Positions 337-36,460 of a stretch of DNA of 64,000 nt are shown in pieces. The DNA comes from Dehalococcoidia bacterium (GTDB taxonomy: Bacteria > Chloroflexota > Dehalococcoidia > Lucifugimonadales > UBA3495), in NCBI GenBank assembly GCA_965237595.1, contig CBDEFY010000006.1:168671-232670 (forward strand), in the 5' to 3' direction. Numbering within the stretch: position 1 is the stretch's first letter; every line of letters begins with the position of its first letter. Below the pieces are notes generated by a model that saw only the letters and a program-made list of their open reading frames with translations, was not told the origin of the DNA and ran no database searches. A program made the translations under genes and the position numbers.

Positions 337-927
337 GTGGGTCAGGAAAACGGCACCTTCTCCTTTAATTCTGGTATTGGTCCAATCGGAGTCTGTTTGA
401 GAAGATTTCTTGGCGGAAAGGTCCGGCTCCATGAGGGGATCATCGGCGCCAATCTCGATGATTGGGAAGGTGAGAGGTGGCTGGACATCCGGCGTATCGA
501 CCTGTTGGGGCCAATCATGGAAGCCCGGATGGACTCGTGCAAGCTCAAAGGTTTCGACGGTATTGAACCCGATAACGTGGACGGGTTCCTGAATGACACC
601 GGGTTTCCTCTGACCTACGACGACCAGCTTGAGTACAACATCTGGCTGGCCGAGACCGCCCACGAGCGCGGACTTTCCATCGGCCTCAAGAACGACATGG
701 ACCAGATCCCAGATCTACTGTCTTATTTCGATTGGGCGTTGAATGAGGAGTGCTTCCAGTACCGCGAATGCGAAACCCTGTTGCCATTCATCGAAGCCGG
801 CAAAGCGGTTTTCAATGTGGAGTACGGTCTGGAGGCCGGCCAGTACTGCGCCGAGGCCGAGAAACTGGGATTCAACTCCATGAGGAAGAACCTGGACTTA
901 GACGCCTGGCGAGAATCGTGTGACTAG
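337..927 (+). CDS. glycoside hydrolase family 114-like (endo-alpha-1,4-polygalactosaminidase-like) protein, short or possibly truncated N-terminus
   Basis: Translation contains DDWEGERWLDIR, FDGIEPDNVDGF, GLSIGLKND and NEECFQYRECE, typical of the GH114 TIM-barrel. An in-frame TGA lies at 331-333, and the upstream ORF 28-333 is not GH114-like. Confidence 0.55.
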   Translation: MGQENGTFSFNSGIGPIGVCLRRFLGGKVRLHEGIIGANLDDWEGERWLDIRRIDLLGPIMEARMDSCKLKGFDGIEPDNVDGFLNDTGFPLTYDDQLEYNIWLAETAHERGLSIGLKNDMDQIPDLLSYFDWALNEECFQYRECETLLPFIEAGKAVFNVEYGLEAGQYCAEAEKLGFNSMRKNLDLDAWRESCD

Positions 928-972
928 GTGTGTTCGACCCTTTCGTACTTCCGGCAAGGTTTTTAGGCACAA

Positions 973-1005
973 AACAAACCCCGGGGTGGTTCCCGGGGGT
1001 TTGTT
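973..1005. terminator. bidirectional hairpin terminator between convergent genes
   Basis: aacaaaccccgggg / cccgggggtttgtt forms a perfect 14-bp stem with a 5-nt loop, flanked by A/T runs, between the 3' ends of 337-927(+) and 1045-2208(-). Confidence 0.6.
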
Positions 1006-1044
1006 ATCGTCTGGGATTCGCTGTTGGGCCAGGTCCACTTGTTA

Positions 1045-2208
1045 CTACCAATAATCACTCGTTGGCCCTTCTTTACCGGTGGGGAGAGAGCGCATGATAT
1101 CGCCGTGGTTGCCGGGCAGGTAGTCGAAGAAGCATACGCCGTAGTGCCCGAATTCTTGGTCGGCGGCAAAAAGATCCGTCCAGGCCGGATTTGGCGTGAC
1201 ATTGTTCGGCGTTCGCACATCGTAAAGGCCAAAGTCGACAAAGATGTTTGAGGGGAATATCCCAACCGAAGTGCCGACGACCTCTCCTTGTTCGATCCAC
1301 ACCGGCGGATTGATAAAGCTGGATCTGCTGTCATCGGCAACGGGAGCCGGCAGGAAGCTGAGTGCGTCCGATAGTATTGGGGACACCACGCGCACGTGAT
1401 CGAACCGATAGAAAAATCCGCATGGCACCGAGAAAAACAGCAGGTACTGTTCGTCGCTGCCCTCTAGATATCGGGCTGCTTGTACCAAGTGGGAGCCGAT
1501 TGGAGCTCGGACCGTGATATTGCCGCCAGTATTCGCATCGAAGCGAAATCCGCCATGACCTTTATAGCCACCGCGCACCTGACCGGGCCACAGCGCCGAA
1601 GTTACCAAATCCATGTCCACAGGCGTCTGTAAGCCGAGGGGCTCTGAGCAATCTGGCGGCGTGCCGCTTGGCGACCAACTCGTTCCCTCGAACGACCATC
1701 TAACGCCGGATGTAGCGCCGGAAGTGACGGTATGACCGTCATTGCTTGTGGCCTGTTGCGTTTCGTTTGACCCCGCATGAGCGGCTTCGGGAGTGGGCCC
1801 TTGAATGGGTTCGGACGCTGTTGCAACAACAGAATTGGGTAGCTCTGAATTCCGCAAGAGCGTCGGTGTGATTCTTTCGGTGCGTACCCCGGTCGTAACC
1901 GTGAGGTCAAGCGCGATCGATTGGTTTGTCTCTTTAGAGGTGATGCCTTCTATGTGCCAATGCAACTTCGCCTTTTCGCCCGGATGTACGAGTAGGGTTT
2001 CTCCTTGGTAGGAAGAGGGCGGAATCATTTTGTATTCAATCCGGTCCCAACTGGCCCGAGACGGGAATTTTCCCCAGGTGCCGCTGTATTGCGCCCGCGG
2101 ACTGCCGTTCTCCGTGAACGTCATCTTTGGCGACTTAAATTCAATGACTTGGTCGCTTTCGTTGTAGGCCAAAATTTCCGTCTCGTCCGCAGAGAGATTG
2201 CTGAAATC
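1045..2208 (-). pseudogene. secreted lipoprotein, C-terminal 387 codons, separated from its 5' part by IS3 copy A
   Basis: The reading frame stays open up to the IS junction at 2208. Joining 3913..3545 to 2208..1045 and removing one ATC TSD copy gives 1533 nt, or 510 aa, in frame (..EYYWPLDFSNLSADETEILAYNES..). Confidence 0.75.
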
Positions 2209-2280
2209 TGAGGTGGACCCGGAAATTCGGACAGGTGGTTAAGTGAGAGTTCTGCTCCTAAAATAGCCACAGCTGTTGCT

Positions 2281-2583
2281 GTGAGGGAGGAGTGGGACAT
2301 GTCAAAAGAGCGGAGGAAGCACAGCCCAACATTCAAGGCCAAGGTGGCCCTGGAAGCGGTGAAGGGTGAAGAGACGGTGGCCCAACTGGCCGCCCCCTAC
2401 GAGGTCCATCCCGGGCAGATCCAGGCCTGGAAGAAGTCCTTGTTGGAAGGAGCGGTCGGCGTCTTTGGTGGGAACCAAGACAAACGCCAGAAGAGCGATG
2501 CGGTCCTTGTTGCCCGGCTCTATCAGCAGATCGGCCAACTGAAGGTTGAGCGGGATTTCTTGGCGGAGAGGCTCGGTCCATGA
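2281..2583 (+). CDS. IS3-family transposase OrfA (HTH)
   Basis: [31 protein letters not shown]...[12 protein letters not shown] is a typical IS3/IS911 OrfA HTH plus leucine-zipper region. Its stop overlaps the orfB ATG (ATGA). Confidence 0.9.
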   Translation: MREEWDMSKERRKHSPTFKAKVALEAVKGEETVAQLAAPYEVHPGQIQAWKKSLLEGAVGVFGGNQDKRQKSDAVLVARLYQQIGQLKVERDFLAERLGP

Positions 2584-3527
2584 GCCGGGAGCGGCGGCGG
2601 GAGATGGTGGACCGGCGGCACCCAGCCTTGTCCACAGTGAGACAGTGCGCCTTACTGAGCATCAGCAGGTCCAGCCTAAACTACCGGCGCAAGGGGACTT
2701 GCTCGGAGAACCTGACCGTGATGAAGGCGATGGACCACCAGTACCTAAGTACCCCCTTCTACGGGTCGCGGCGCATGAGGGTCTGGCTGGGCACTCAAGG
2801 TCACAGGGTGAACCGGAAGCGGGTCCAGCGTCTGATGCGGACCATGGGACTACGTGCCATCTACCGGTGGCCCCGGACCAGCAAGCCGGGGCCAGGGCAC
2901 AAGGTGTATCCCTACCTCCTGAGCGGCATGGAGATCACCAGACCAAATCAGGTGTGGGCCGCCGACATCACCTACATCCCCATGGCCAAGGGTTTCTTAT
3001 ACCTGGTGGCCATCATGGATTGGTACACGCGGTACGTGGTGGCCTGGCGTCTTTCCAACACCTTGGATGCTGATTTCTGTGTCGAGACATTGGAGGAAGC
3101 GCTTGGCAAGGGGAAGCCAGAGGTCTTCAACACCGACCAGGGCAGCCAGTTCACCGGCGAAGCCTTTACCGGTCTCCTAGAGCAGCACGGAGTGAGAATC
3201 AGCATGGACGGGAAGGGACGACGCTACACCGACAACATCTTGTTGGAGCGGCTGTGGCGCACGGTTAAGTACGAGGAGGTCTACCTGAAAGCCTACTCCA
3301 ACGGGCGAGAAGCCAAGGCCGGGCTTGACGCATACTTCAGCTTCTACAACAACCAAAGACCCCACCAGGCCTTGGGCTACCGGACACCGGCTGAGGTGTT
3401 CAAAGGAGACTTGGCGCCATCAGATGAACGGTCAATCAATGGGAAACGGGCACCGAACGGAGCGTTCTCAGACCTTGGAAAGACGGCGGAACTCCCACTT
3501 AGTTTTGCACCAAACCTGTCCAACTGA
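2580..3527 (+). CDS. IS3-family transposase OrfB (DDE integrase core)
   Basis: rve-type DDE motifs: WAADITYIP, FNTDQGSQFT, ERLWRTVKYEEVY. C-terminal part reads NNQRPHQALGYRTPAEVF. Confidence 0.9.
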   Translation: MSRERRREMVDRRHPALSTVRQCALLSISRSSLNYRRKGTCSENLTVMKAMDHQYLSTPFYGSRRMRVWLGTQGHRVNRKRVQRLMRTMGLRAIYRWPRTSKPGPGHKVYPYLLSGMEITRPNQVWAADITYIPMAKGFLYLVAIMDWYTRYVVAWRLSNTLDADFCVETLEEALGKGKPEVFNTDQGSQFTGEAFTGLLEQHGVRISMDGKGRRYTDNILLERLWRTVKYEEVYLKAYSNGREAKAGLDAYFSFYNNQRPHQALGYRTPAEVFKGDLAPSDERSINGKRAPNGAFSDLGKTAELPLSFAPNLSN

Positions 3528-3541
3528 TTGGGTCCACCTCA

Positions 3542-3913
3542 ATCAAGGGGCCAATAATATTCAAGCGTCAGGCCGTTCTGTTGATAAAATACAGCGTTTT
3601 GAACTTGCGACCGGCCGGTGGATGATTGTGCTGCCGGTGCGTGTTGATTGCCGGAGTCAACTGTTGGCGCCGGCTGGGGCGCTGGGGTCGGCTGTTCAGA
3701 ATGGTTCGAAGCTGGAACTATGGTTTGTGTAGGCCGTTCTTCCGGTGCGGATGTTGCAGCGGGCACTGCCGTGGGGCTGGGCGGAAGGCCGGGCGTCGCA
3801 GCAGGAGTTGCGGTTGCCGGTGCCGGCACCTGGATAGACGGTGCTTGGCATGCGACAAGAAGAAAGGGAGTTACGGTGACCATTAGACCGAATGCCAGAC
3901 TGCGGAAGCTCAT
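3542..3913 (-). pseudogene. secreted lipoprotein, N-terminal part (signal peptide with lipobox), cut by IS3 copy A
   Basis: MSFRSLAFGLMVTVTPFLLVAC is a lipobox signal peptide, followed by a Pro/Ala/Thr-rich linker. The ORF only terminates at a stop supplied by the IS end (3539-3541). Confidence 0.75.
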
Positions 3914-4105
3914 AAATCGATACTAGCAAGAGCCGGGCGTTAATTCGAACCGGTGTATGGCCATGCGGCGTGGGCGTGAATCGAAAGACCCGTGCTCATT
4001 CGCCGGGCCCGGCATCACCGGCTGGGCGTCACCACCTAGCCGATCGACAGTGGACCGCAAGCGGAACCCCGGTCCTACGTCTAGGGCAGCCCCCAGGCCA
4101 AGGAC

Positions 4106-4531
4106 GTGGGGCCGGGCGAGGTGGCCTTGGGCAAGAACTGGCAGGTGACTGCGGGCCTAGCGGAGCACGTCCAGCCGTGGTTGGACTCCCTGGCCTACCG
4201 GGTGGACACCCCCGAGGGCAGCGTGGTCTTCACCGGCGACACCCAGCCCTGCGACACGGTGCGGGAGTTGGCCCGCGACGCCGACATGATGCTCTGCATA
4301 TGCTGGGACGACCAAGCGGTGATGAACGATGTCAACGAAGCCAACGGTCGCTGCGGCACCACCGGCGCCGCTCAACTGGCCCAAGAAGCCGGCGTGAAAA
4401 AGCTGGTCCAAGTCCACATGGGCCCCAACCTCTCATCCGAAACCCCTTTCGACCGCCATTACGAAGAGATGACCCCCATGTACCACGGGGAGATTGTCTT
4501 CTCGGAAGAATTGCTGCGGTTGGAGGTTTAG
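4106..4531 (+). pseudogene. MBL-fold metallo-hydrolase, C-terminal half only
   Basis: ..SLAYRVDTPEGSVVFTGDTQPCDTVRELARDADMMLCI..GTTGAAQLAQEAGVKKLVQVHMGP resembles the C-terminal half of MBL-fold hydrolases. There is an in-frame TAG at 4082-4084, and I found no HxHxDH-containing N-terminal half in any frame upstream. Confidence 0.4.
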
Positions 4532-4574
4532 GGTGCTAAAATGCCAACGAACCCGCCCCCCCTGGAGTCACACC

Positions 4575-5135
4575 GTGCAAGCACAGATCAAACACCTGAC
4601 CACAGCCGACCTGGAAGCGGGGCTTGATGAGATTCGTAATGCGCCCAAGGACCAGGTCATTCTGGACATGATTGTCCGGCGTCCCGAGGACGAGGCACGG
4701 GGGGTCATCGAAATCGGAGAGCTGGACACGGTGGCGGGACTGGTGGGGGACAACTGGCAGTCACGGCCCAGTTCCCGCAGCGCCGACGGAAAGGCCCATC
4801 CCGACATGCAAATCAATATCATGAACTCCAGGGTCACCGCCTTGGTGGCCCAGAACAAGGACCGCTGGCAGTTGGCCGGCGACCCGTTGTTCGTGGACTT
4901 TGATCTCAGCAAAGATAACGTGCCCCCTGGCACCAAGCTGGTAATCGGCTCGGCGGTGCTTGAGGCCACGGACCAGCCCCACACCGGCTGCCAGAAATTC
5001 TCCGGCCGTTTCGGCGTCGACGCCCTGAAGCTGATCAGTTCCCCCACCGGCAAGGAACTCCAACTACGGGGTATCTGCGCCAAGGTGGTACAGGGCGGTC
5101 AGATCAGGACTGGCGATACAGTAAGAAAACTCTAG
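4575..5135 (+). CDS. MOSC domain-containing protein
   Basis: C-terminal ..TDQPHTGCQKFSGRFG..LRGICAKVVQGGQIRTGDTV is typical of MOSC/YiiM-like proteins. GTG at 4575 is chosen as the start because the longer ORF overlaps the preceding gene. Confidence 0.6.
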   Translation: MQAQIKHLTTADLEAGLDEIRNAPKDQVILDMIVRRPEDEARGVIEIGELDTVAGLVGDNWQSRPSSRSADGKAHPDMQINIMNSRVTALVAQNKDRWQLAGDPLFVDFDLSKDNVPPGTKLVIGSAVLEATDQPHTGCQKFSGRFGVDALKLISSPTGKELQLRGICAKVVQGGQIRTGDTVRKL

Positions 5136-5185
5136 GCAAAAAGCCCTAAGCCAATCATTTAACCAACAACACCGGAGGCGACACC

Positions 5186-6295
5186 GTGGCCACATTGACC
5201 ACGCCCGACGCAGTAGCGATGGACACCCAGAAATTGGAGCAGGTCAAACAACTGTTCCAACGGCAGATCGACGAGGGCCTTCATCCGGGGGCCGGCCTGG
5301 CGGTGTACCGCTACGGCAATCTGGTGCTGGACATCCATGGCGGCTTCACCGACACCGGGTCCAGTCGGCCCGTTACGACCGATACCATGTTCGTGCTGAT
5401 GTCCTCCACCAAACCATTGACGGCATCCTGCCTCTACATGCTGAAAGAGCGCGGAAAGATCGCCTGGGACGACCTGGTGTCCAAGCACTGGCCCGAGTTC
5501 GCCCAGAACGGCAAAGAGACGGTTACAATCCGGCACATCCTGACCCACCGGGGCGGGTTCCCCCAGACCCCGGAGTCCCTGCCCTGGACCGATTGGCCCG
5601 ATTGGAGCAAAGTGACCCGGGCCATGGAACAGGCGACCCCTATCTACGCCCCCGGCGAGACGCTGGCCTACCACCCCATCAACTACGGCTGGGTCATCGC
5701 CGAACTCGTGCGGCGGGTTGACGGCCGGACCTTCGACAGGTTCATCGCGGAAGAACTGGCCGCGCCTCTTGGCATGGACAACACCTACGTGGGCCTGCCA
5801 CCGGGCTTGGAAGTCCGGGTGTCGCCAATGCATCTGATGGAAGACGACGCCGATCCCAACGGCTATAGCGCAACTTTCAGCAATCCGGTGGTGCTTCAGT
5901 CCATCGTGCCCGGCGCAGCAGGTGTCGCCACGGCGGGGGACCTGGCCCGGTACTACGCCATGATGGAGCGCAAGGGAACCCTGGATGGGTCAACGGTGAT
6001 CAAGCCGGAGATGGTGGACGAAGCGGTCGAATTGCAGGTGGAGGGCATCGACCAATCGTTGGGCCTCTTCGCCCAACGATCCCTGGGCCTGGCCCTAGCC
6101 GACGAGCGCATGGGAACCCCCACCGGAGACCCGCTGAAGACCTTCGGCCACGGCGGCGCGGGCACGTCCATCGGATGGGCCGACTTCGACTCGGGCCTGG
6201 CCGTGGGCTACATCACCAACGGCTTCCGGGGCAGTGTCACCAACAACGCCAGACTGGCCGCCGTCTCCCAAGCCGTCCGCGACGCCTGTATCTAA
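5186..6295 (+). CDS. serine hydrolase, beta-lactamase/esterase (class C-like) family
   Basis: SxxK motif (MSSTKPLTA) and the general beta-lactamase-related fold pattern. GGAGG lies upstream of the GTG start. Confidence 0.75.
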   Translation: MATLTTPDAVAMDTQKLEQVKQLFQRQIDEGLHPGAGLAVYRYGNLVLDIHGGFTDTGSSRPVTTDTMFVLMSSTKPLTASCLYMLKERGKIAWDDLVSKHWPEFAQNGKETVTIRHILTHRGGFPQTPESLPWTDWPDWSKVTRAMEQATPIYAPGETLAYHPINYGWVIAELVRRVDGRTFDRFIAEELAAPLGMDNTYVGLPPGLEVRVSPMHLMEDDADPNGYSATFSNPVVLQSIVPGAAGVATAGDLARYYAMMERKGTLDGSTVIKPEMVDEAVELQVEGIDQSLGLFAQRSLGLALADERMGTPTGDPLKTFGHGGAGTSIGWADFDSGLAVGYITNGFRGSVTNNARLAAVSQAVRDACI

Positions 6296-6439
6296 GCCGT
6301 TCACGGCGTTTTCATGGTGTCTCTGCGCCCTAGCTCGGGGATGGCCCTTGGCTGCATCCGCTTCGGTGTTTCCTTACGTATCTAATCCAGATAACCGAAC
6401 ATCGCCACTGCGGATTTGCCTATGGTTGAGGGATGAAAT

Positions 6440-7324
6440 ATGGAAACTACCAATAGATTCCTGGGTGGCAGCATGTCCCGGCGCGCCTTTCTCAGCCGGC
6501 TGGCCTTGGTCGCGGGCGGCTCGGCCGTTGCTCTGGCCTGCGGCTCTGAGGCCACGGCCATCGCTCCCACCGCCGCGCCGAGTCCGACAGCCGAGCCCAC
6601 CACGGCGCCGGCGCCCGCTGCCGGGGACTCAATCGAGGCCGGTCCAGTGGAGTTCGACGCCGAAGGAGAGAAGTTGCAGGGGTATCTGTCCAGACCAGCT
6701 CTCCCCGGACCCCATCCTGGGATCGTGGTGGTGCACGAGAACCGGGGGCTGCTGCCCCACTTCTTGGACCTGACCCGCCGGTTCGCGCGGGAAGGGTACG
6801 TCGCCCTGGCCGTGGATTTGCTCTCCCGGCAAGGGGGCGCGGATTCCTTTGCCGACGACAACGCGATGCGCGACGCTCTGCGCCTTATCCCCACCGATCA
6901 GGTCGTACACGACGGCAACGCCGCCGTGAAGTTCCTGCAAGACCAGCCCTACGTCCGGAGCGACCGGGTCGGCGCTACGGGGTTCTGTTTCGGCGGCAGC
7001 ATCGTGTGGCTGATGGCCGTTGGCAATCCGGAACTGCGCGCGGCGGTCCCTTTCTACGGCAGCGCTCCGCCCCTGGAGGACGTGGCCAACCTACAGGTAC
7101 CGACGCTGGGGATCTACGCCGAAGAGGACGCACGCATAAACGCGGGAGTGGCGGCCCTGGAAGACGTACTGAAAGCCGAAGGGAAGAACTATAAATTCGT
7201 GACCTATCCCGGGGCCAACCACGCGTTCTTCAACGATACCGGCAGCCGCTACCACCCCCAGGCCGCCGAAGGGGCCTGGATGGAAGCCCTGGACTGGTTC
7301 GAAGACCATCTGATGGATTCCTAG
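6440..7324 (+). CDS. dienelactone hydrolase family protein with Tat-type signal
   Basis: SRRAFLSRLALVAGGSAVALAC is a twin-arginine-type leader. DLH-like regions: GIVVVHENRGL, GATGFCFGG, YPGANHAFFND. Confidence 0.75.
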   Translation: METTNRFLGGSMSRRAFLSRLALVAGGSAVALACGSEATAIAPTAAPSPTAEPTTAPAPAAGDSIEAGPVEFDAEGEKLQGYLSRPALPGPHPGIVVVHENRGLLPHFLDLTRRFAREGYVALAVDLLSRQGGADSFADDNAMRDALRLIPTDQVVHDGNAAVKFLQDQPYVRSDRVGATGFCFGGSIVWLMAVGNPELRAAVPFYGSAPPLEDVANLQVPTLGIYAEEDARINAGVAALEDVLKAEGKNYKFVTYPGANHAFFNDTGSRYHPQAAEGAWMEALDWFEDHLMDS

Positions 7325-11041: not shown

Positions 11042-11451
11042 ATGCGCGACACCAGTTGGATTGACAAAGAGGAGTACCCGTTTCAGTCTCGCTACCTGGA
11101 GCTGGAAATGGGTAGGCTGCACTACGTTGACGAGGGCGAGGGAAATCCCATCGTCATGGTTCACGGCACGCCTACTTGGTCCTTCGAGTATCGGCATCTT
11201 ATCAAAGGACTTTCGAAGCGGTACCGATGCATTGCGATGGACCACATCGGCTTTGGGCTATCCGATAAGCCGAGTGAATGGTCGTATCTGCCCGAAGCGC
11301 ACGCTCGCAACGTTGAGGCGCTGATAGAGTCGCTAGGCCTTGAGGATATTACGCTCGTAGTCCATGACTTCGGTGGCCCGATCGGGCTATCGTACGCGAT
11401 TCGGCATCCAGACAAAGTGAAGCATCTCGTAATCATGAATAGCTGGATGTG
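11042..11451 (+). pseudogene. alpha/beta hydrolase (haloalkane dehalogenase-like), 5' part, interrupted by IS3 copy B and then by an IS1595-family transposon
   Basis: HYVDEGEGNPIVMVHGTPTWSFEYRHLI..LVVHDFGGPIGL..VIMNSWM. Joining 11042-11451, 12757-12782 and 18136-18575 gives 876 nt, or 291 aa, in frame. Confidence 0.85.
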
Positions 11452-11465
11452 TGAGGTGGACCCAA

Positions 11466-12382
11466 TCAGTTGGACAGGTTTGGTGCAAAACTAAGTGGGA
11501 GTTCCGCCGTCTTTCCAAGGTCTGAGAACGCTCCGTTCGGTGCCCGTTTCCCATTGATTGACCGTTCATCTGATGGCGCCAAGTCTCCTTTGAACACCTC
11601 AGCCGGTGTCCGGTAGCCCAAGGCCTGGTGGGGTCTTTAAGCCCGGCCTTGGCTTCTCGCCCGTTGGAGTAGGCTTTCAGGTAGACCTCCTCGTACTTAA
11701 CCGTGCGCCACAGCCGCTCCAACAAGATGTTGTCGGTGTAGCGTCCCTTCCCGTCCATGCTGATTCTCACTCCGTGCTGCTCTAGGAGACCGGTGAAGGC
11801 TTCGCCGGTGAACTGGCTGCCCTGGTCGGTGTTGAAGACCTCTGGCTTCCCCTTGCCAAGCGCTTCCTCCAATGTCTCGACACAGAAATCAGCATCCAAG
11901 GTGTTGGAAAGACGCCAGGCCACCACGTACCGCGTGTACCAATCCATGATGGCCACCAGGTATAAGAAACCCTTGGCCATGGGGATGTAGGTGATGTCGG
12001 CGGCCCACACCTGATTTGGTCTGGTGATCTCCATGCCGCTCAGGAGGTAGGGATACACCTTGTGCCCTGGCCCCGGCTTGCTGGTCCGGGGCCACCGGTA
12101 GATGGCACGTAGTCCCATGGTCCGCATCAGACGCTGGACCCGCTTCCGGTTCACCCTGTGACCTTGAGTGCCCAGCCAGACCCTCATGCGCCGCGACCCG
12201 TAGAAGGGGGTACTTAGGTACTGGTGGTCCATCGCCTTCATCACGGTCAGGTTCTCCAAGCAAGTCCCCTTGCGCCGGTAGTTTAGGCTGGACCTGCTGA
12301 TGCTCAGTAAGGCGCACTGTCTCACTGTGGACAAGGCTGGGTGCCGCCGGTCTACCATCTCCCGCCGCCGCTCCCGGCTCAT
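11466..12382 (-). pseudogene. IS3 OrfB, frameshifted by the 28-bp deletion
   Basis: Translation matches copy A up to ..GREAKAGL and then leaves the frame (KDPTRPWATG..). Confidence 0.85.
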
Positions 12383-12681
12383 GGACCGAGCCTCTCCGCC
12401 AAGAAATCCCGCTCAACCTTCAGTTGGCCGATCTGCTGATAGAGCCGGGCAACAAGGACCCCATCGCTCTTCTGGCGTTTGTCTTGGTTCCCACCAAAGA
12501 CGCCGACCGCTCCTTCCAACAAGGACTTCTTCCAGGCCTGGATCTGCCCGGGATGGACCTCGTAGCGGGCGGCCAGTTGGGCCACCGTCTCTTCACCCTT
12601 CACCGCTTCCAGGGCCATCTTGGCCTTGAATGTTGGGCTGTGCTTCCTCCGCTCTTTTGACATGTCCCACTCCTCCCTCAC
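12379..12681 (-). CDS. IS3-family transposase OrfA (copy B)
   Basis: 100 aa, differing from copy C OrfA at only two positions. Confidence 0.85.
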   Translation of the reverse strand: MREEWDMSKERRKHSPTFKAKMALEAVKGEETVAQLAARYEVHPGQIQAWKKSLLEGAVGVFGGNQDKRQKSDGVLVARLYQQIGQLKVERDFLAERLGP

Positions 12682-12869
12682 AGCAACAGCTGTGGCTATT
12701 TTAGGAGCAGAACTCTCACTTAACCACCTGTCCGAATTTCCGGGTCCACCTCAGTGGTCGCTCAAAGACCAGCCAAAATTTAGGGAATTATACGGAATTC
12801 TAGCCGAAACCCTTGACATCGACAACCCTTTCGGCTAAAATAATGACATAAATCAAACGGCAATCAAGA

Positions 12870-13850
12870 GTGGTTATGGTTACTAAGTCCGGCCCTGGCA
12901 AGTCCTACCGCAAGGGAATAACCTTGCTGGAAATCTGCGAACGCTTCAGCACCGTGGAGAAAGCCGAAGCGTGGTTCATCGAACAGCGCTGGCCCAACGG
13001 GATAGCCTGCCCGTTCTGCGGGAGCCTCAACATCGCCAACATCGCCAGTCGCAAGCCCCAACCCTTCCGGTGTCGGGAGAAAGAGTGCCGCAAGCATTTC
13101 AGCGTCAAGACCAAGACGGTACTGCATAGCTCCAACATCCCGCTCAATAAGTGGGCCATCGGGTTCTACCTATACATGACCAGCTTGAAGGGTGTCTCCA
13201 GCATGAAGCTCCACCGGGACCTAGGCATCCGGCAATCGTCGGCATGGCACATGGCCCACAGAATCAGGGAAACGCTGGCCGTCACGGGTGGCACGTTCAC
13301 CGGCCCCGTCGAAGTTGATGAGACCTACATCGGGGGACTGGAGAAGAACAAACACGCCAACAAACGCCTCAAAGCGGGGAGAGGGCCAGTCGGGAAGACC
13401 ACCGTGGTAGGCATGAAGGACCGGGAAACTGGACAGATTACTAGCCGGGTTGTAGAGTCCACCGACGCAGGCACGCTCCAAGGGTTCGTGAAAGAGCACA
13501 CCGAGGACAACACGATGGTCTACACCGACGAAGCCGCCGCCTATCGTGGTCTACCCCGGCCCCATGAGAGCGTCAAGCACAGCGTTTCCGAGTTCGTCCG
13601 AGGGATGGCCCACACAAACGGGATAGAGAGCCACTGGGCAGCTCTCAAGCGAGGCTACGACGGGGTTTACCACCATATGTCGGCCAAGCACCTACAAAGG
13701 TATGTCGTGGAGTTCGAGGGGCGGCACAACAACCGCCCGATGGACACCGCCGACATGATGAGCAAGCTGGCGAAGGGCACCGAGGGCAAGCGGTTGACCT
13801 ACGCCACGCTGATAGGGCCGAAGGAAACAGCCGAGGACGGTCTAAGCTAA
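12870..13850 (+). CDS. IS1595-family (ISXO2-like) DDE transposase with N-terminal zinc ribbon
   Basis: CPFCGS..FRCREKECRKHFS zinc ribbon. VEVDETYIGG, MVYTDEAAAY and HTNGIESHWAALKR are the IS1595 DDE(N/H)K-type motifs. Its stop overlaps the next gene's ATG (TAATG at 13848-13852). Confidence 0.9.
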   Translation: MVMVTKSGPGKSYRKGITLLEICERFSTVEKAEAWFIEQRWPNGIACPFCGSLNIANIASRKPQPFRCREKECRKHFSVKTKTVLHSSNIPLNKWAIGFYLYMTSLKGVSSMKLHRDLGIRQSSAWHMAHRIRETLAVTGGTFTGPVEVDETYIGGLEKNKHANKRLKAGRGPVGKTTVVGMKDRETGQITSRVVESTDAGTLQGFVKEHTEDNTMVYTDEAAAYRGLPRPHESVKHSVSEFVRGMAHTNGIESHWAALKRGYDGVYHHMSAKHLQRYVVEFEGRHNNRPMDTADMMSKLAKGTEGKRLTYATLIGPKETAEDGLS

Positions 13851-16146
13851 TGGCCACTGAAATGACTACGGTCATCAAGAAGATTGTCCCCTATCTTCAA
13901 CGGCGTGGCTACTCACTAGATGACAATATGTTCTTCGGTGAGCGTGCTGAGAACGAGCAAGAACGTATAGGGTTCGTTGATATTCTTGTAAAGCGGAGTG
14001 ATCGGGCAACCCAGCCGTTGTTTGTAATTGAAGCTAAGAGAGATAGCGCGAAGCTCAACGCCTCCCACCGGAAACAGGCCATCGATTATGGCAAAGTCCT
14101 CAAGTGCTCACTAGTTGTGGTCACCAATGGCGAGGATTTTGAGCTCCACAATGTAACTACAGGTAAAAGACTTAAAGTTAACGGGTCCGTCATCGGCAAG
14201 GTTCCGTTGTACAGCCGTACAGATGCCGTGTTAAGGCAACTTAGAGACAACCCCTTTCTCGACAACATTGACCTTACTGCAGACAATAGCCTTCCATACC
14301 GGCCTGGACTAAATCTGCCGCAGTTGCAGGCATTGATTAGAAGATGCCATAACACTATCCGTAACGTCGAAAAAGACGAAGAGAATGTGTTTTCAGATGT
14401 GTCCAAACTCTTGTTTCTCAAACTGTTGGAGGAAAAGCAAGATCGTGGTGAATTAGGCTTTGACCTGCCCTACACATATCGATTTCATGAACTAGCAAAA
14501 CTAGGCACTTCACCTGATCAGGTTAGAGACGCTGTAATAAGCATGATGGGACAAGTGGTCAAACTACCGAGTTATGGCGATGTCATGACGCCGACTCTTT
14601 TCATGGAGAAACCCGCGACGTTCCTGAAAGTGGTCTCCGAATTGGCCAAGGCAGATTTTAGTGACTCGGAATTAGACGTACGCGGTTCGGTGTTCGAGTA
14701 TTTTGTCAGATTGAGCCTGAGGGGGCGACGGCTCGGACAGTTTTTTACACCACGCCCGTTGGTTAGGTTTATGCTCTCAATTTTACCGATTGAGCAGGCA
14801 ATTCCTGACCTGCTTGATCCTGATACACACCCAATGATTATAGATCCTGCCTGCGGCTCGGGCGGATTCCTGTTGGCGGCGATGAATACTCTCTTGGATA
14901 AGGTTGACTCCGAGACAGGGACTACATACTCGGCTGATCGGGCCGACTCGTTGAAACAACGGATCAAACGGGATGTGTTCTGGGGTGCCGATGCAAATCA
15001 GCGTATTGCATCTACGGCAAAGATGAACATGATTATTGCTGGTGATGGCTTTGCGAACATCCGCCATGGAGATAGCCTTACGGAGGAAGTGGACTTCTTG
15101 AATGTTCGAAATCGGTCTGTGACCCTTGCCGATTTTGTTCTGACCAACCCCCCCTTCGGTATGTCGGAGACAGATACCCTACTGCCTGAGGATTTGGCTA
15201 TCTTTCCGAATCCTACCCCGAAAACACAAGCACTGTTCCTCCAGAAAATGGTTCTTCTCACCAAAGCAAATGGGCAGATTTGCACTGTGATAGACGAGGG
15301 AATGCTGAACACCGCTGCTGTCTCAACCATACGTCGGTATCTTATCAAGGAGTGTTTTATAGATGCGGTAATTCGGCTACCTGATGTGACTTTTAGCCCA
15401 AACAAGATAAATGTTCGGTCCAGCGTCCTCTTGATGACCCGGAAACCCGACGAGGATGCGGAGCAAGATTATCCGATACGTATGATTGAGCTAAACCAGG
15501 TGGGGTACAACGCGATGGGCGAAGAAGACACTGATACCCCGATAGATGGAATCATTGACCTAGTACGAGCCCGTTGGAACGACATAGGGAGACTCCCATT
15601 GGGATTGGCCGAGACTGGCGGTATATTCAAATCTTATCCCTTGGAGCTCGCTGATGTGGTCGCCTTGGATGACACTAGGCTGGACGTAAAGTATTACGAT
15701 CCTGGCACCTTGGAGTTTATAGAACAGTTGAAGGATGCCGGAGCCAAAAGCTTAAGGCAACTCTCTCGGCAGTCCATTCATCGAGGCAAGTCGCCCTCCA
15801 AAGCCGAATACAACGTAGACCTTGACAGCAATATTCGGGTAGTTAAAGCGGGGAACATAGGACGTGTTGGGCTAACGGGAGAATTTGATCTAATCAACGA
15901 GAATGTTTACTTGCGGTTGGCCAACGCCCAGATTCACGAAAACGACGTCTTGTTGGCCTCGACCGGTGAAGGCACCCTCGGAAAGGCCACCGTTTATGAT
16001 TCTAGTACTCCCGCAGTTGCGGATGGCCACGTTTCCATCATCCGGCTCAACAATGGCGTGCTGCCCGAATACGCAATGTGGTTTCTCCGCAGTGAATATG
16101 GGCAAAGACAGATCACTAGACTGTTCACTGGAGCCACAGGGCTTAT
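13850..16146 (+). pseudogene. single-chain type IIG R-M-S enzyme (PD-(D/E)xK nuclease + gamma-class N6-adenine methyltransferase + specificity domain), 5' part, interrupted by IS3 copy C
   Basis: N-terminal HsdR-N-like nuclease motif (FVDILV..VIEAKR). QFFTPRPLV, IIDPACGSGGFLL (motif I), LTNPPFG (motif IV). C-terminal HsdS-like target-recognition domain. Joining 13850-16146 to 17481-17688 gives 2505 nt, or 834 aa, in frame. Confidence 0.85.
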
Positions 16147-16218
16147 TGAGGTGGACCCGGAAATTCGGACAGGTGGTTAAGTGAGAGTTCTGCTCCTAAA
16201 ATAGCCACAGCTGTTGCT

Positions 16219-16521
16219 GTGAGGGAGGAGTGGGACATGTCAAAAGAGCGGAGGAAGCACAGCCCAACATTCAAGGCCAAGGTGGCCCTGGAAGCGGTGA
16301 AGGGTGAAGAGACGGTGGCCCAACTGGCCGCCCGCTACGAGGTCCATCCCGGGCAGATCCAGGCCTGGAAGAAGTCCTTGTTGGAAGGAGCGGTCGGCGT
16401 CTTTGGTGGGAACCAAGACAAACGCCAGAAGAGCGATGCGGTCCTTGTTGCCCGGCTCTATCAGCAGATCGGCCAACTGAAGGTTGAGCGGGATTTCTTG
16501 GCGGAGAGGCTCGGTCCATGA
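16219..16521 (+). CDS. IS3-family transposase OrfA (copy C)
   Basis: 100 aa. Best consensus version of OrfA ([10 protein letters not shown]). Confidence 0.9.
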
Positions 16522-16542
16522 GCCGGGAGCGGCGGCAGGACG

Positions 16543-17463
16543 ATGGTGGACCGGCGGCACCCAGCCTTGTCCACAGTGAGACAGTGCGCCTTACTGAGCA
16601 TCAGCAGGTCCAGCCTAAACTACCGGCGCAAGGGGACTTGCTTGGAGAACCTGACGGTGATGAAGGCGATGGACCACCAGTACCTAAGTACCCCCTTCTA
16701 CGGGTCGCGGCGCATGAGGGTCTGGCTGGGCACTCAAGGTCACAGGGTGAACCGGAAGCGGGTCCAGCGTCTGATGCGGACCATGGGACTACGTGCCATC
16801 TACCGGTGGCCCCGGACCAACAAGCCGGGGCCAGGGCACAAGGTGTATCCCTACCTCCTGAGCGGCATGGAGATCACCAGACCAAATCAGGTGTGGGCCG
16901 CCGACATCACCTACATCCCCATGGCCAAGGGTTTCTTATACCTGGTGGCCATCATGGATTGGTACACGCGGTACGTGGTGGCCTGGCGTCTTTCCAACAC
17001 CTTGGATGCTGATTTCTGTGTCGAGACATTGGAGGAAGCGCTTGGCAAGGGGAAGCCAGAGGTCTTCAACACCGACCAGGGCAGCCAGTTCACCGGCGAA
17101 GCCTTTACCGGTCTCCTAGAGCAGCACGGAGTGAGAATCAGCATGGACGGGAAGGGACGCTACACCGACAACATCTTGTTGGAGCGGCTGTGGCGCACGG
17201 TTAAGTACGAGGAGGTCTACCTGAAAGCCTACTCCAACGGGCGAGAAGCCAAGGCCGGGCTTGACGCATACTTCAGCTTCTACAACAACCAAAGACCCCA
17301 CCAGGCCTTGGGCTACCGGACACCGGCTGAGGTGTTCAAAGGAGACTTGGCGCCATCAGATGAACGGTCAATCAATGGGAAACGGGCACCGAACGGAGCG
17401 TTCTCAGACCTTGGAAAGACGGCGGAACTCTCACTTAGTTTTGCACCAAACCTGTCCAACTGA
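16543..17463 (+). CDS. IS3-family transposase OrfB (copy C), N-terminus disturbed by a frameshift; ORF restarts at an internal Met
   Basis: The canonical ATG at 16518 runs out of frame after 6 codons. An intact 306-aa DDE ORF starts at MVDRRHPALS. Confidence 0.75.
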   Translation: MVDRRHPALSTVRQCALLSISRSSLNYRRKGTCLENLTVMKAMDHQYLSTPFYGSRRMRVWLGTQGHRVNRKRVQRLMRTMGLRAIYRWPRTNKPGPGHKVYPYLLSGMEITRPNQVWAADITYIPMAKGFLYLVAIMDWYTRYVVAWRLSNTLDADFCVETLEEALGKGKPEVFNTDQGSQFTGEAFTGLLEQHGVRISMDGKGRYTDNILLERLWRTVKYEEVYLKAYSNGREAKAGLDAYFSFYNNQRPHQALGYRTPAEVFKGDLAPSDERSINGKRAPNGAFSDLGKTAELSLSFAPNLSN

Positions 17464-17480
17464 TTGGGTCCACCTCATAT

Positions 17481-17688
17481 TGAGTTGCCAGAGGATGCCG
17501 CAAATCGCATCTTGGTTTTAGTTCCTAGTGATGAAGGGAAGCAACAGTCTTTGGTCAGAGAATGGATCACGCAAGTTAGAGAAGCTGAAGCCTTGGAGAA
17601 CGAGGCCCGGGCCAAACGACAAGAAGCGCATGATCAATTTATCGAGAAGCTCCAACCATATATCAAACGCCCTTTATCGATGGAATGA
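17481..17688 (+). pseudogene. type IIG R-M-S enzyme, 3' part (end of the specificity domain and coiled coil)
   Basis: ELPEDAANRILVLVPSDEGKQQSLVREWITQVREAEALENEA.. continues ..FTGATGLI from 16146 in frame, matching the typical HsdS TRD end and conserved helical spacer. Confidence 0.8.
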
Positions 17689-17800
17689 GAATTATCTGAT
17701 GCCCCAGCCAGACACTTATAAACCGGCTAGCTGAGGGCCGCAAACAGAACGTAGACCGGTCAGCTAACGACCTTCTAGACTAAGAGTCAGGAGTGTAGCC

Positions 17801-18088
17801 ATGCCGCGAACACGGGGAAAAACGGCGAAGCAAAGTGCGACCAAGGCGAAGACTAAGGTGGCGCGGGGCCGTCCAGTTGAGAAGAAGTTGCCGCCTCGGA
17901 TAGATGCTACCCCAGAGCAAATGGCACAGGCTATGTTCGCCCTTCCCGCAGACTACAAGTGGCAGTACGACCAAGGCGGGGCTCGGAAGGTCTACAAATG
18001 TGTGGACTGCGGAGAGGCAGCTTACTACCCGGAGACCCTGTACCGGGATGGGCGATGCAAGGCTTGCAAGAAGGCCATGGCCGGGTAG
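17801..18088 (+). CDS. small basic zinc-ribbon protein, last gene of the transposon (function unknown)
   Basis: Lys/Arg-rich N-terminus. CVDCG..(14)..CKACKK is a four-Cys ribbon. The ORF ends 12 nt before the right IR. Confidence 0.5.
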   Translation: MPRTRGKTAKQSATKAKTKVARGRPVEKKLPPRIDATPEQMAQAMFALPADYKWQYDQGGARKVYKCVDCGEAAYYPETLYRDGRCKACKKAMAG

Positions 18089-18135
18089 CTGGAACAGGGC
18101 TTTCGGCTAGAATTCCGTATAATTCCCAAAATTTA

Positions 18136-18575
18136 AGTGGACCAGCCGCTTTCTTGGAGGGCCGGTTGGTCGGCTCCTGTACCGCCAGATGAACTTCTCT
18201 CCGAGGATCTTGATGAAAATGATAGTTGGGGACAAGTCAAAGCTGCCCAAACACATCCACGACCACTACCTGAAAGCTCTCCCCACACCGCGCGAGCGAA
18301 AAGGGACATGGGTATTCGCCAAGGAGCTTGTGGCCTCAGGCGACTGGTATGACAGCTTGTGGAGCGAGCGAGGAAATATAGATGGCATTCCGGCCCTGTT
18401 TATCTGGGGCATGAAGGACAGCGCCTTCACTCAAAGAGAACTTGAGCAGTGGGAAAACTTCCTCACAAGCGCGCAAGCGATTCAGTTGGACACCATCGGA
18501 CACTTCGTTGCCGAGGAGATGGGAGACGCGCTACCCCCATTAGTCGCCGAATTCTTGGAGGCACAGAGCGCATGA
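18136..18575 (+). pseudogene. alpha/beta hydrolase (haloalkane dehalogenase-like), 3' part
   Basis: (K)WTSRFLGGPVGRLLYRQMNFSPRILMK..ALFIWGMKDSAF..IGHFVAEE includes the catalytic His region and is in frame with the 5' part once both insertions are removed. Confidence 0.85.
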
Positions 18576-35037: not shown

Positions 35038-35061
35038 TCTATCACGGTGAGGTGGACCCAA

Positions 35062-36008
35062 TTAGTTGGACAGGTTTGGTGCAAAACTAAGTGGGAGTTC
35101 CGCCGTCTTTCCAAGGTCTGAGAACGCTCCGTTCGGTGCCCGTTTCCCATTGATTGACCGTTCATCTGATGGCGCCAAGTCTCCTTTGAACACCTCAGCC
35201 GGTGTCCGGTAGCCCAAGGCCTGGTGGGGTCTTTGGTTGTTGTAGAAGCTGAAGTATGCGTCAAGCCCGGCCTTGGCTTCTCGCCCGTTGGAGTAGGCTT
35301 TCAGGTAGACCTCCTCGTACTTAACCGTGCGCCACAGCCGCTCCAACAAGATGTTGTCGGTGTAGCGTCCCTTCCCGTCCATGCTGATTCTCACTCCGTG
35401 CTGCTCTAGGAGACCGGTAAAGGCTTCGCCGGTGAACTGGCTGCCCTGGTCGGTGTTGAAGACCTCTGGCTTCCCCTTGCCAAGCGCTTCCTCCAATGTC
35501 TCGACACAGAAATCAGCATCCAAGGTGTTGGAAAGACGCCAGGCCACCACGTACCGCGTGTACCAATCCATGATGGCCACCAGGTATAAGAAACCCTTGG
35601 CCATGGGGATGTAGGTGATGTCGGCGGCCCACACCTGATTTGGTCTGGTGATCTCCATGCCGCTCAGGAGGTAGGGATACACCTTGTGCCCTGGCCCCGG
35701 CTTGCTGGTCCGGGGCCACCGGTAGATGGCACGTAGTCCCATGGTCCGCATCAGACACGCTGGACCCGCTTCCGGTTCACCCTGTGACCTTGAGTGCCCA
35801 GCCAGACCCTCATGCGCCGCGACCCGTAGAAGGGGGTACTTAGGTACTGGTGGTCCATCGCCTTCATCACGGTCAGGTTCTCCGAGCAAGTCCCCTTGCG
35901 CCGGTAGTTTAGGCTGGACCTGCTGATGCTCAGTAAGGCGCACTGTCTCACTGTGGACAAGGCTGGGTGCCGCCGGTCCACCATCTCCCGCCGCCGCTCC
36001 CGGCTCAT
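35062..36008 (-). pseudogene. IS3 OrfB (copy D), frameshifted
   Basis: The N-terminal 85 codons (35751-36008) and the remaining DDE core are in different frames because of the 2-nt insertion. Confidence 0.85.
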
Positions 36009-36307
36009 GGACCGAGCCTCTCCGCCAAGAAATCCCGCTCAACCTTCAGTTGGCCGATCTGCTGATAGAGCCGGGCAACAAGGACCCCATCGCTCTTCTG
36101 GCGTTTGTCTTGGTTCCCACCAAAGACGCCGACCGCTCCTTCCAACAAGGACTTCTTCCAGGCCTGGATCTGCCCGGGATGGACCTCGTAGCGGGCGGCC
36201 AGTTGGGCCACCGTCTCTTCACCCTTCACCGCTTCCAGGGCCACCTTGGCCTTGAATGTTGGGCTGTGCTTCCTCCGCTCTTTTGACATGTCCCACTCCT
36301 CCCTCAC
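36005..36307 (-). CDS. IS3-family transposase OrfA (copy D)
   Basis: Intact 100-aa OrfA. Confidence 0.85.
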
Positions 36308-36460
36308 AGCAACAGCTGTGGCTATTTTAGGAGCAGAACTCTCACTTAACCACCTGTCCGAATTTCCGGGTCCACCTCAGTCTTCCAAGAAGAAAGCTCA
36401 TCAGAACGGCGCCGCCGATAATCGAAACGCACGGGACACTTACAAGTACCACCTTAGAGA

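Follow-up and report, generated by a model that had tools for sequence, protein, structure and literature searches.

When a restriction-modification (RM) gene lies directly behind a transposase gene, it may be the cargo of a transposon or merely its neighbour on the chromosome. This question is raised by a locus within a 64,000-nt stretch of DNA, referred to here as the window, from the contig CBDEFY010000006.1 of a Dehalococcoidia bacterium (Chloroflexota; assembly GCA_965237595.1). At this locus, a pair of terminal inverted repeats (IRs) encloses three plus-strand genes that encode an IS1595-family transposase, an RM protein and a small tail protein. A preliminary description of the DNA had proposed that the RM gene travels inside the transposon. 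Our analyses lead us to consider it very likely that positions 12783-18127 constitute an IS1595-family transporter insertion sequence (tIS) that moves an RM-type gene as a unit.

The element was delimited to the base. Its left and right repeats (IRL, GGGAATTATACGGAATTCTAGCCGAAA, and IRR) paired at 27 of 27 positions and at 29 of 30 when extended, with zero such matches expected by chance (100 shuffles), and they were bordered by two copies of an 8-bp target-site duplication (TSD), AAAATTTA. Perfect 27-bp IRs and an 8-bp TSD were thus present as originally claimed. Removal of the element plus one AAAATTTA, and of the insertion sequence (IS) IS3 copy B plus one GTG, restored a host gene starting at position 11042 and encoding a 291-aa haloalkane-dehalogenase-like α/β hydrolase, whose repaired product aligned without gaps across both junctions to PDB 8ooh_A (E 8e-87). 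The in-frame host gene that had been predicted upon excision was therefore recovered, but only when IS3 copy B, a separate second insertion into the same gene, was excised as well. As also suggested earlier, the cargo proved more AT-rich than the chromosome, with a GC content of 0.489 (0.53 at third codon positions, GC3) in the RM gene, 0.591 (GC3 0.78) in the transposase gene and 0.61-0.63 in the flanks. The 27-bp repeat pair occurred once in the window, and the element held one IS1595 transposase gene; a composite transposon was rejected on both counts. The IS3-family copies were likewise ruled out as borders of the unit, as they are located outside the element or inside its cargo.

Additional copies of the unit were obtained solely through protein-based look-ups. 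A search with the restored RM protein returned more than 7800 family matches, including an uninterrupted, 98% identical gene on a 553-kb contig (locus L001). There, the intact RM gene again lies between a transposase gene and a tail gene, within the same repeats (two mismatches each) and a TSD of ATAAATAA. The L001 element has a length of 4016 bp, throughout which it is 93.5% identical to the window element minus IS3, and its neighbours, a thiolase and a PNPOx-like gene, are unrelated to those of the window site. A search with the tail protein identified another copy (L089; 3806 bp, 97.6-99.5% identical) at yet another site, with TAATTATG as its TSD. The unit therefore moves as one, as a tIS should, and the window, L001 and L089 represent three independent insertions of the transposase-RM-tail unit. 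These were copies of the kind that the preliminary description had proposed to look for, at other sites and in other assemblies, and their own TSDs bear out its view of the RM gene as cargo and not a neighbour. L001, L089 and a short contig fragment to which the tail-protein search also led (L090) read straight through the position at which IS3 copy C interrupts the RM gene in the window. Because all three are uninterrupted at this site, the knock-out by IS3 copy C is a later event that is private to the window, as had been surmised. Coordinates of the features are listed in Table 1.

Table 1. Features of the IS1595-family element and its insertion site, in window positions.
Feature	Position	Strand	Remarks
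Whole element	12783-18127		IS1595-family unit transposon with cargo inside
Left TSD copy	12775-12782		8 bp, AAAATTTA; same letters as 18128-18135
IRL	12783-12809	+	GGGAATTATACGGAATTCTAGCCGAAA; 27-bp exact reverse complement of 18101-18127
Sigma-70-like promoter, predicted	12813-12841	+	TTGACA, 17 nt, TAAAAT; 11/12 consensus matches
Transposase gene	12870-13850	+	326 aa; IS1595-family DDE transposase with N-terminal zinc ribbon
Recombinant block	13662-17744	+	RM gene preceded by the final ~170-190 bp of the transposase gene
RM gene, 5' part	13850-16146	+	Codons 1-766; nuclease, methyltransferase and most of the recognition domain
IS3 copy C	16147-17477	+	TSD TAT at 16144-16146 and 17478-17480; interrupts the RM gene
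RM gene, 3' part	17481-17688	+	Codons 767-834 plus stop; end of the recognition domain, long C-terminal helix
Tail gene	17801-18088	+	95 aa, basic; RGRP (AT-hook-like) core, PPRIDATPEE motif, CxxC-x15-CxxC zinc ribbon
IRR	18101-18127	-	27-bp exact reverse complement of IRL
Right TSD copy	18128-18135		AAAATTTA; same letters as 12775-12782
Host hydrolase gene, 5' part	11042-11451	+	Continues at 12754-12782 and 18136-18575
IS3 copy B	11452-12753	-	3-bp TSD GTG; 29 bp from IRL, outside the transposon
Host hydrolase gene, 3' part	18136-18575	+

The transposase was assigned to the IS1595 family by its matches to Pfam DDE_Tnp_IS1595 (PF12762; 1e-36, 126.7 bits against a cut-off of 27), Pfam Zn_ribbon_IS1595 (PF12760; 2.4e-7, 31 bits against 25.4) and NCBIfam transpos_IS1595 (NF033547; 3.6e-51, 174 bits against 75), in agreement with the ISXO2-like enzyme named in the preliminary description. 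The zinc-ribbon residues C47, C50, C68 and C73 and the catalytic triad D150, D220 and E253 were kept in at least 95% of 44 relatives. The element thus combines an ISXO2-like DDE domain, an N-terminal zinc ribbon, short IRs and an 8-bp TSD, the hallmarks of the family. A lysine, K260, sits seven residues after E253; this DDE-K spacing and the termini GGGAATTAT are compatible with the DDEK signature and the terminal consensus (ggnnatTAT) of the ISNwi1 group of ISfinder. Plasmid records held no close relative: the nearest annotated transposases were at most 43% identical and named just "IS1595 family", and the two top matches, which were inspected, had no RM cargo adjoining the transposase gene.

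The TAA stop of the transposase gene and the ATG of the RM gene at position 13850 have one base in common (TAATG). This overlap, pointed out previously, is present in the window element but is not conserved, as the two genes are separated by a 4-nt gap in L001. Tight junctions are nevertheless common among relatives, in which the cargo often begins a few bases past the transposase stop. Just inside IRL and 5' of the transposase gene lies the predicted promoter, and relatives possess TTGACA...TAxAAT at the same place. The spacer of this near-consensus promoter contains TTTCGGCTA (12830-12838), the complement of a stretch in the inner part of IRL (TAGCCGAAA, 12801-12809), and a similar pairing with altered bases (TTAGCCAA / TTGGCTAA) was seen in the relative L020. 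The paired region (12801-12841) may form a hairpin with a regulatory role or provide the transposase with a second binding site.

A transposase scan using one genome per species returned 80 loci with transposases 52-79% identical to that of the window. Hosts were nearly all Dehalococcoidia/SAR202, Caldilineaceae, Poribacteria, Bryobacterales and similar metagenome-assembled genomes, several of which, judging by their record names, probably come from marine-sponge metagenome studies. Boundaries were recognisable for 53 elements of 1.7-8.3 kb, the window copy and L001 included. Their repeats are of the type GGGAATTATATAC..., with termini of the type GGGAATTATA... in about 50 related elements; perfect 8-bp TSDs flank at least 42 of the 53, and in three more they were recognised by eye. 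All 53 carry DNA beyond the ~1.05 kb taken up by the leader and transposase gene. Where single genomes contained identical paralogues, these matched cargo included, ended exactly at the repeats and had different TSDs. The TSDs averaged 80% A+T, compared with 40% in the 3-kb flanks (42 elements from L001-L082 and the window).

RM or methyltransferase cargo was found in 19 of the 53 elements and was of at least five unrelated kinds. These comprise three single-chain N6_Mtase enzymes that are unrelated to one another (25-29% identity; window/L001, L070 and L082); an N6_N4 methyltransferase fused to HNH (L014, L023, L036, L062, L066, L080 and others); a methyltransferase with a BglII-like endonuclease (L008); a methyltransferase with an IceA/NlaIII-like endonuclease (L039-L041); and a Dam-like methyltransferase with a NotI-like endonuclease (L018). 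The types are scattered across the transposase tree, and among the closest relatives of the window element the slot before the tail gene contains a methyltransferase with BglII or an unknown protein, or is free of RM cargo. The remaining cargo consists of nested IS elements or of uncharacterised proteins, many of which are rich in Pro/Thr and look secreted. In L011, L022, L042/L043, L055, L065 and L070, a signal-peptide- or lipoprotein-like N-terminus is combined with long Pro/Thr-rich linkers, and one such protein has a CAP/SCP domain; PADLOC matched none of six non-RM cargo proteins tested. Judged by their sequences, the secreted-looking proteins appear to form a second passenger class of this lineage.

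The RM family itself is not bound to IS1595. Relatives with 64-82% protein identity were found without an IS1595 transposase (L002, L083-L085 and L087/L088; the gene is split into two ORFs, or open reading frames, in L083/L084), and none of 80 metagenome loci with RM relatives of at most 72% identity had such a transposase nearby. The latter result led us to reject the idea that the whole RM family rides IS1595; only the clade of at least 83% identity does. Because the family also occurs without any IS1595 transposase, the association is the capture of one branch and not a fixed operon.

The copies have a mosaic structure. When the window element was compared with L001 (L001:8929-12944), element positions 1 to ~880 and ~3600 to the end were each 16% different, whereas positions ~900-3590, which hold the transposase 3' end and the RM gene, differed by 2%. 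Synonymous divergence (dS) was lowest in the RM gene (0.04), followed by the last 61 transposase codons (0.17), the tail gene (0.54) and transposase codons 1-265 (0.85), and the breakpoints of the block were placed at ~13662-13682 and 17710-17744. L089 (6522-10327) showed the opposite pattern, with a backbone 99.4-100% identical to that of the window and an RM gene 97.6% identical. Since selection at the protein level cannot yield such a contrast in dS, these comparisons indicate that the RM block was recently exchanged between backbones that are ~16% apart. In a decayed, older version of the unit (L086; ~78% identical), what is left is the transposase 3' end, the RM gene and a remnant of the tail gene, and its left boundary coincides exactly with that of the exchanged block. 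Cargo could thus plausibly be swapped through recombination in the conserved 3' part of the transposase gene.

The tail ORF stops 12 bp before IRR. Homologues were found by tblastn and blastp at the right end of many related elements whatever their cargo, and in L003/L004 the gene directly follows the transposase gene with no RM cargo between. Because it is conserved at the right ends of relatives with quite different cargo, the tail gene is a backbone gene of the IS, neither cargo nor RM-associated. The small basic zinc-ribbon ORF of the preliminary description is thus indeed just inside IRR, but it belongs to the backbone and is not tied to the RM gene. An N-terminal signature, (K/R)xRGRP...PPRIDATPEE.A, is common to the last ORFs of the elements, even those without the C-terminal ribbon, and in an alignment of 70 homologues G23, P25, P32, D35, C70, C86 and YPxTL were invariant while C67 and C89 were kept in at least 90%. 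The protein had no match in Pfam, NCBIfam or PADLOC, and an exact look-up of its 95 aa returned nothing on record. RGRP is the core of the AT-hook, and its presence in elements whose targets and termini are AT-rich suggests a DNA-binding role; we conjecture that the protein could help in end binding or in the choice of AT-rich targets. The AT-rich TSDs and the RGRP core may thus be connected. A 77%-identical tail gene was also observed on ENA contigs from four samples (L091-L096), where it follows a Methylase_S remnant with no transposase and is surrounded by genes for an OLD-like ATPase, a PemK toxin, an Mrr-like protein and a resolvase. This looks like a fossil RM-carrying element in a defence/mobile island that is conserved across several assemblies.

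Upon removal of IS3 copy C and one TAT, the two parts of the RM gene join into a single ORF of 834 codons. Residues 37-106 of its product match HSDR_N_2, a PD-(D/E)xK nuclease domain, above the Pfam gathering threshold, with D44, E61 and K63 as catalytic residues; residues 276-555 match N6_Mtase, a gamma-class N6-adenine methyltransferase with DPACGSGGFL and NPPF motifs; and an HsdS-like recognition domain at ~606-822 covers just one half of S-subunit profiles. In PADLOC, one family model matched the full length (5.5e-183), and residues 608-822 matched an S subunit. The three domains assigned earlier were thereby confirmed by Pfam, NCBIfam and PADLOC, and the prospect that profile searches would show no methyltransferase or nuclease homology, raised beforehand as a refutation, did not materialise. 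D44, E61, K63, DPACGxGGFL and NPPFG were kept in 108-109 of 109 full-length homologues (41-98% identity). The intact L001 protein was modelled with AlphaFold (predicted local distance difference test, pLDDT, 87.9; predicted template-modelling score, pTM, 0.80), and the model was compared with known structures using Foldseek, which returned the StySJI M protein (1.9e-22), type IIG BpuSI over the whole length (5.2e-22) and type IIB BsaXI (1.4e-19); in a phmmer search, the match to BsaXI (2.9e-25) was restricted to the methyltransferase region. With its nuclease and methyltransferase domains in one polypeptide, as in type IIG enzymes, the protein fits a single-chain type IIG-like enzyme with a fused half-S recognition domain, and we think it reasonably likely that it is an active restriction enzyme when intact.

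Other classes were considered for this protein. Type I RM was rejected, as the element has no HsdR-like or helicase gene, the hsdM equivalog scored 58.6 bits against a cut-off of 242.75, and HsdR-type similarity in Pfam and NCBIfam was limited to the N-terminal nuclease part. MAD2 of the MADS system was rejected as well, as NF047738 reached 172 bits where its cut-off is 720 and the element lacks any further mad gene. A type IIB system like BcgI/BsaXI did not fit either, since the recognition domain is part of the same chain and the element contains no S gene apart from it. In the model, residues 784-819 form a long C-terminal helix. Such a helix mediates pairing in half-size S subunits, and by analogy with type I and type IIB enzymes the protein probably acts as a homodimer on a symmetric bipartite site. 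IS3 copy C lands after codon 766 and takes off the last 68 residues, including the helix. As one shared recognition domain serves both activities, restriction and methylation have probably both been lost from the window copy; its transposase, repeats and tail gene look intact.

In the explanation that we favour, the transposase would bind the IRs and move the whole segment between them. The promoter just inside IRL would transcribe transposase and cargo together. The transposase gene and the tail gene by IRR make up the backbone, with a cargo slot between them that is occupied here by the gene for a putative single-chain type IIG enzyme resembling BpuSI and BcgI. Such cargo may profit the transposon by protecting its host from phages or by imposing a penalty on loss of the element.

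Several observations weigh against this explanation. Neither the metagenome nor the viral collections of the Joint Genome Institute (JGI) contained an exact match to the IR pattern GGGRATTATACGGAATTYTAGCCGAA, so that the copy count of the exact element is small in the available data. Most copies of the transposon (window, L089 and L086) hold a damaged RM gene. PADLOC labels its full-length model only "type II methyltransferase" (MTase_II); the designation type IIG, used from the outset, is thus supported by domain architecture, conserved catalytic residues and fold but not by this label. Nuclease activity is predicted from conserved residues, and co-transcription from the predicted IRL promoter and a role for the tail protein are likewise putative. 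An AlphaFold2 model of the tail protein, of moderate confidence (pLDDT 70.9), yielded no significant Foldseek match, just generic zinc-binding folds.

The damaged copies bear on an alternative with the same anatomy, in which the RM modules are mainly selfish addiction modules that stabilise the transposon and do not defend the host against phages. RM cargo in 19 of 53 elements, in unrelated forms, would be expected of such modules, as would compact one- or two-gene cassettes that abut the transposase gene, and type II RM systems are established as agents of post-segregational killing (work of Kobayashi and colleagues; see PMC2853133). A single-chain enzyme, however, would lose both activities together and should therefore be a weaker addiction module than separate R and M proteins, and the element persists although several of its copies carry inactivated RM genes. 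Besides the window copy, L089 has a 205-bp deletion (window 13894-14098; L089:7620-7650) that removes D44, E61 and K63. In L086 (ENA ERZ21829562 ctg187437l, 1569-6862), another tIS of the IS1595 family interrupts the RM gene after codon ~101. The frequent inactivation suggests that the cargo is costly or selected just transiently, and it weakens a simple addiction model; we regard addiction as the main role of the cargo as rather unlikely, although it is the strongest of the competing explanations. The tIS inside L086 has a transposase 32% identical to that of the window and its own N6_N4 methyltransferase aboard, and L086 is hence a case in which one modification-gene-carrying transposon landed in the RM cargo of another. 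The deletion in L089 leaves a 745-aa ORF that consists of methyltransferase and recognition domain, and it may represent a natural conversion of an RM enzyme to an orphan methylase.

A second alternative holds that the cargo is a DNA methyltransferase only, with an orphan, epigenetic or anti-restriction function, and that its PD-ExK-like domain is non-catalytic or has another role, so that the element would spread a methylation pattern. The MTase_II label agrees with this, as do the public names of relatives ("N-6 DNA methylase" and "type I restriction enzyme M protein"), the presence of the orphan methyltransferase CamA among the structural neighbours found by Foldseek, and the state of L089, in which the methyltransferase and recognition part is kept and the nuclease residues are gone. 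The near-invariance of D44/E61/K63 among the homologues, however, would be unexpected in a dead domain. HSDR_N_2 exceeded its gathering threshold, the full-length fold matches the endonuclease BpuSI, and sister elements pair methyltransferases with BglII-, NotI- and IceA-like or HNH nucleases. Taken as a whole, this makes a methyltransferase without restriction activity quite improbable. Finally, the notion that the RM gene is a chromosomal neighbour caught between an IS1595 copy and a stray IR, or a product of mis-assembly, can be dismissed as extremely improbable: the single IR pair in the window and the same-family RM genes without a transposase elsewhere would be in keeping with it, but L001 and L089 are the same unit with the same repeats and other TSDs and neighbours, excision restores the host hydrolase exactly, and dozens of relatives are built alike, with identical paralogues that end at the repeats.

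The window contains four near-identical IS3-family copies, namely copies B and C (Table 1), A (2209-3541) and D (35048-36379). The 3-bp TSDs of copies A, B and C are ATC, GTG and TAT, respectively. The flanks of copy D (CGG and GTC) are unmatched, which suggests that it was rearranged through recombination with a copy beyond the window.

We compared the tIS and its cargo with known systems. In the IS1595 family paper of Siguier, Gagnevin and Chandler from 2009 (Res Microbiol 160:232), the tIS reportedly correspond to the ISNwi1+ and ISPna2+ groups of ISfinder. Passenger carriage by transporter IS is a recognised feature of the family (bioRxiv 10.1101/2021.05.26.445724; PMC3129680; PMC8496243), for which all three sources cite the 2009 paper. 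Like these tIS, the present element has one ISXO2-like DDE transposase with a zinc ribbon, short IRs, an 8-bp TSD and downstream passengers. It differs in that its passenger is a complete single-chain RM enzyme, in that the lineage has a second conserved small backbone gene at the right end, and in that at least five kinds of RM recur in the slot, with cassette exchange. An IS1595 lineage with recurrent RM cargo, a tail gene and cassette exchange was not found described in the literature, a weak negative given that subscription journals were mostly uncovered.

Furuta, Abe and Kobayashi (2010; PMC2853133) described RM units with IRs of 26-65 bp, 8-bp TSDs and an empty site in a related genome. 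Their Fig. 11 includes a type II unit of Xanthomonas oryzae and a Neisseria gonorrhoeae unit in which a type IIG gene is accompanied by an S-subunit homologue and a transposase-like remnant; for RM and methyltransferase genes linked to IS, they referred to the IS1595 paper. These units lack an intact transposase, and the authors left undecided whether they had been moved by their RM products or, in trans, by a transposase. The element reported here resembles them in its IR-bounded RM gene and 8-bp TSD, and the resemblance extends in one case to a type IIG gene with a transposase-related ORF. Unlike them, it has an intact transposase of a defined family, several independent insertions and a lineage with exchangeable RM cargo. 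With respect to novelty, the preliminary description was correct that passengers are known for IS1595 (bioRxiv 10.1101/2021.05.26.445724), but mobile units of this general kind have a precedent in the IR-bounded RM units of PMC2853133. The element is a bona fide IS1595 tIS, made interesting by its RM cargo, its modular slot and the pattern across the lineage and not by a new principle.

At the level of the enzyme, the RM protein shares a PD-(D/E)xK nuclease, a gamma N6-adenine methyltransferase (NPPF) and a recognition domain, in this order from the N-terminus, with BpuSI (PDB 3s1s) and BcgI/BsaXI (PDB 8w0p), as predicted from sequence and model, although it is just 13-20% identical to them. 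Its recognition domain is a fused HsdS half, neither of the BpuSI/MmeI type nor a separate S protein as in BcgI and BsaXI. Among single-chain enzymes, types IIG and IIB further include HaeIV and AloI. At the level of the transposon, larger elements such as Tn7-like transposons are said to carry defence cargo (Benler and colleagues, mBio, 2021). As in Tn7-like elements, defence genes including RM ride here in a defined region of a DDE transposon. Those elements, however, are multi-gene, site-specific and tens of kb long, whereas the present one, at 4 kb and with one transposase gene, is a near minimal RM vehicle.

The movement of RM genes between genomes has previously been inferred mostly from their neighbours; here, an autonomous DDE transposon carries an RM gene to new sites, and its relatives point to a repeated strategy with interchangeable RM modules. 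The spread of RM genes is thereby given a concrete vehicle whose ends are defined and which comprises a transposase, an accessory gene and a slot for cargo. Such a vehicle may also explain why transposases and RM genes are both abundant in sponge symbionts, and its ~1.4-kb backbone is a compact natural scaffold for gene delivery to AT-rich sites. The practical significance is modest, as the class of IS1595 tIS is already known and activity is predicted. More tentatively, and with somewhat less than even confidence, we propose that this IS1595 sublineage may be a specialised, self-mobile carrier of RM modules with a defined slot between the transposase gene and the AT-hook/zinc-ribbon accessory gene, whose cassettes are swapped via the transposase 3' end and which inserts into AT-rich octamers of GC-rich genomes. 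If this is true, the sublineage would be a main route of RM spread among unrelated phyla of sponge symbionts (Chloroflexota, Poribacteria, Acidobacteriota and others), and it would tie together two long-noted enrichments in such genomes, those of transposases and of RM genes.

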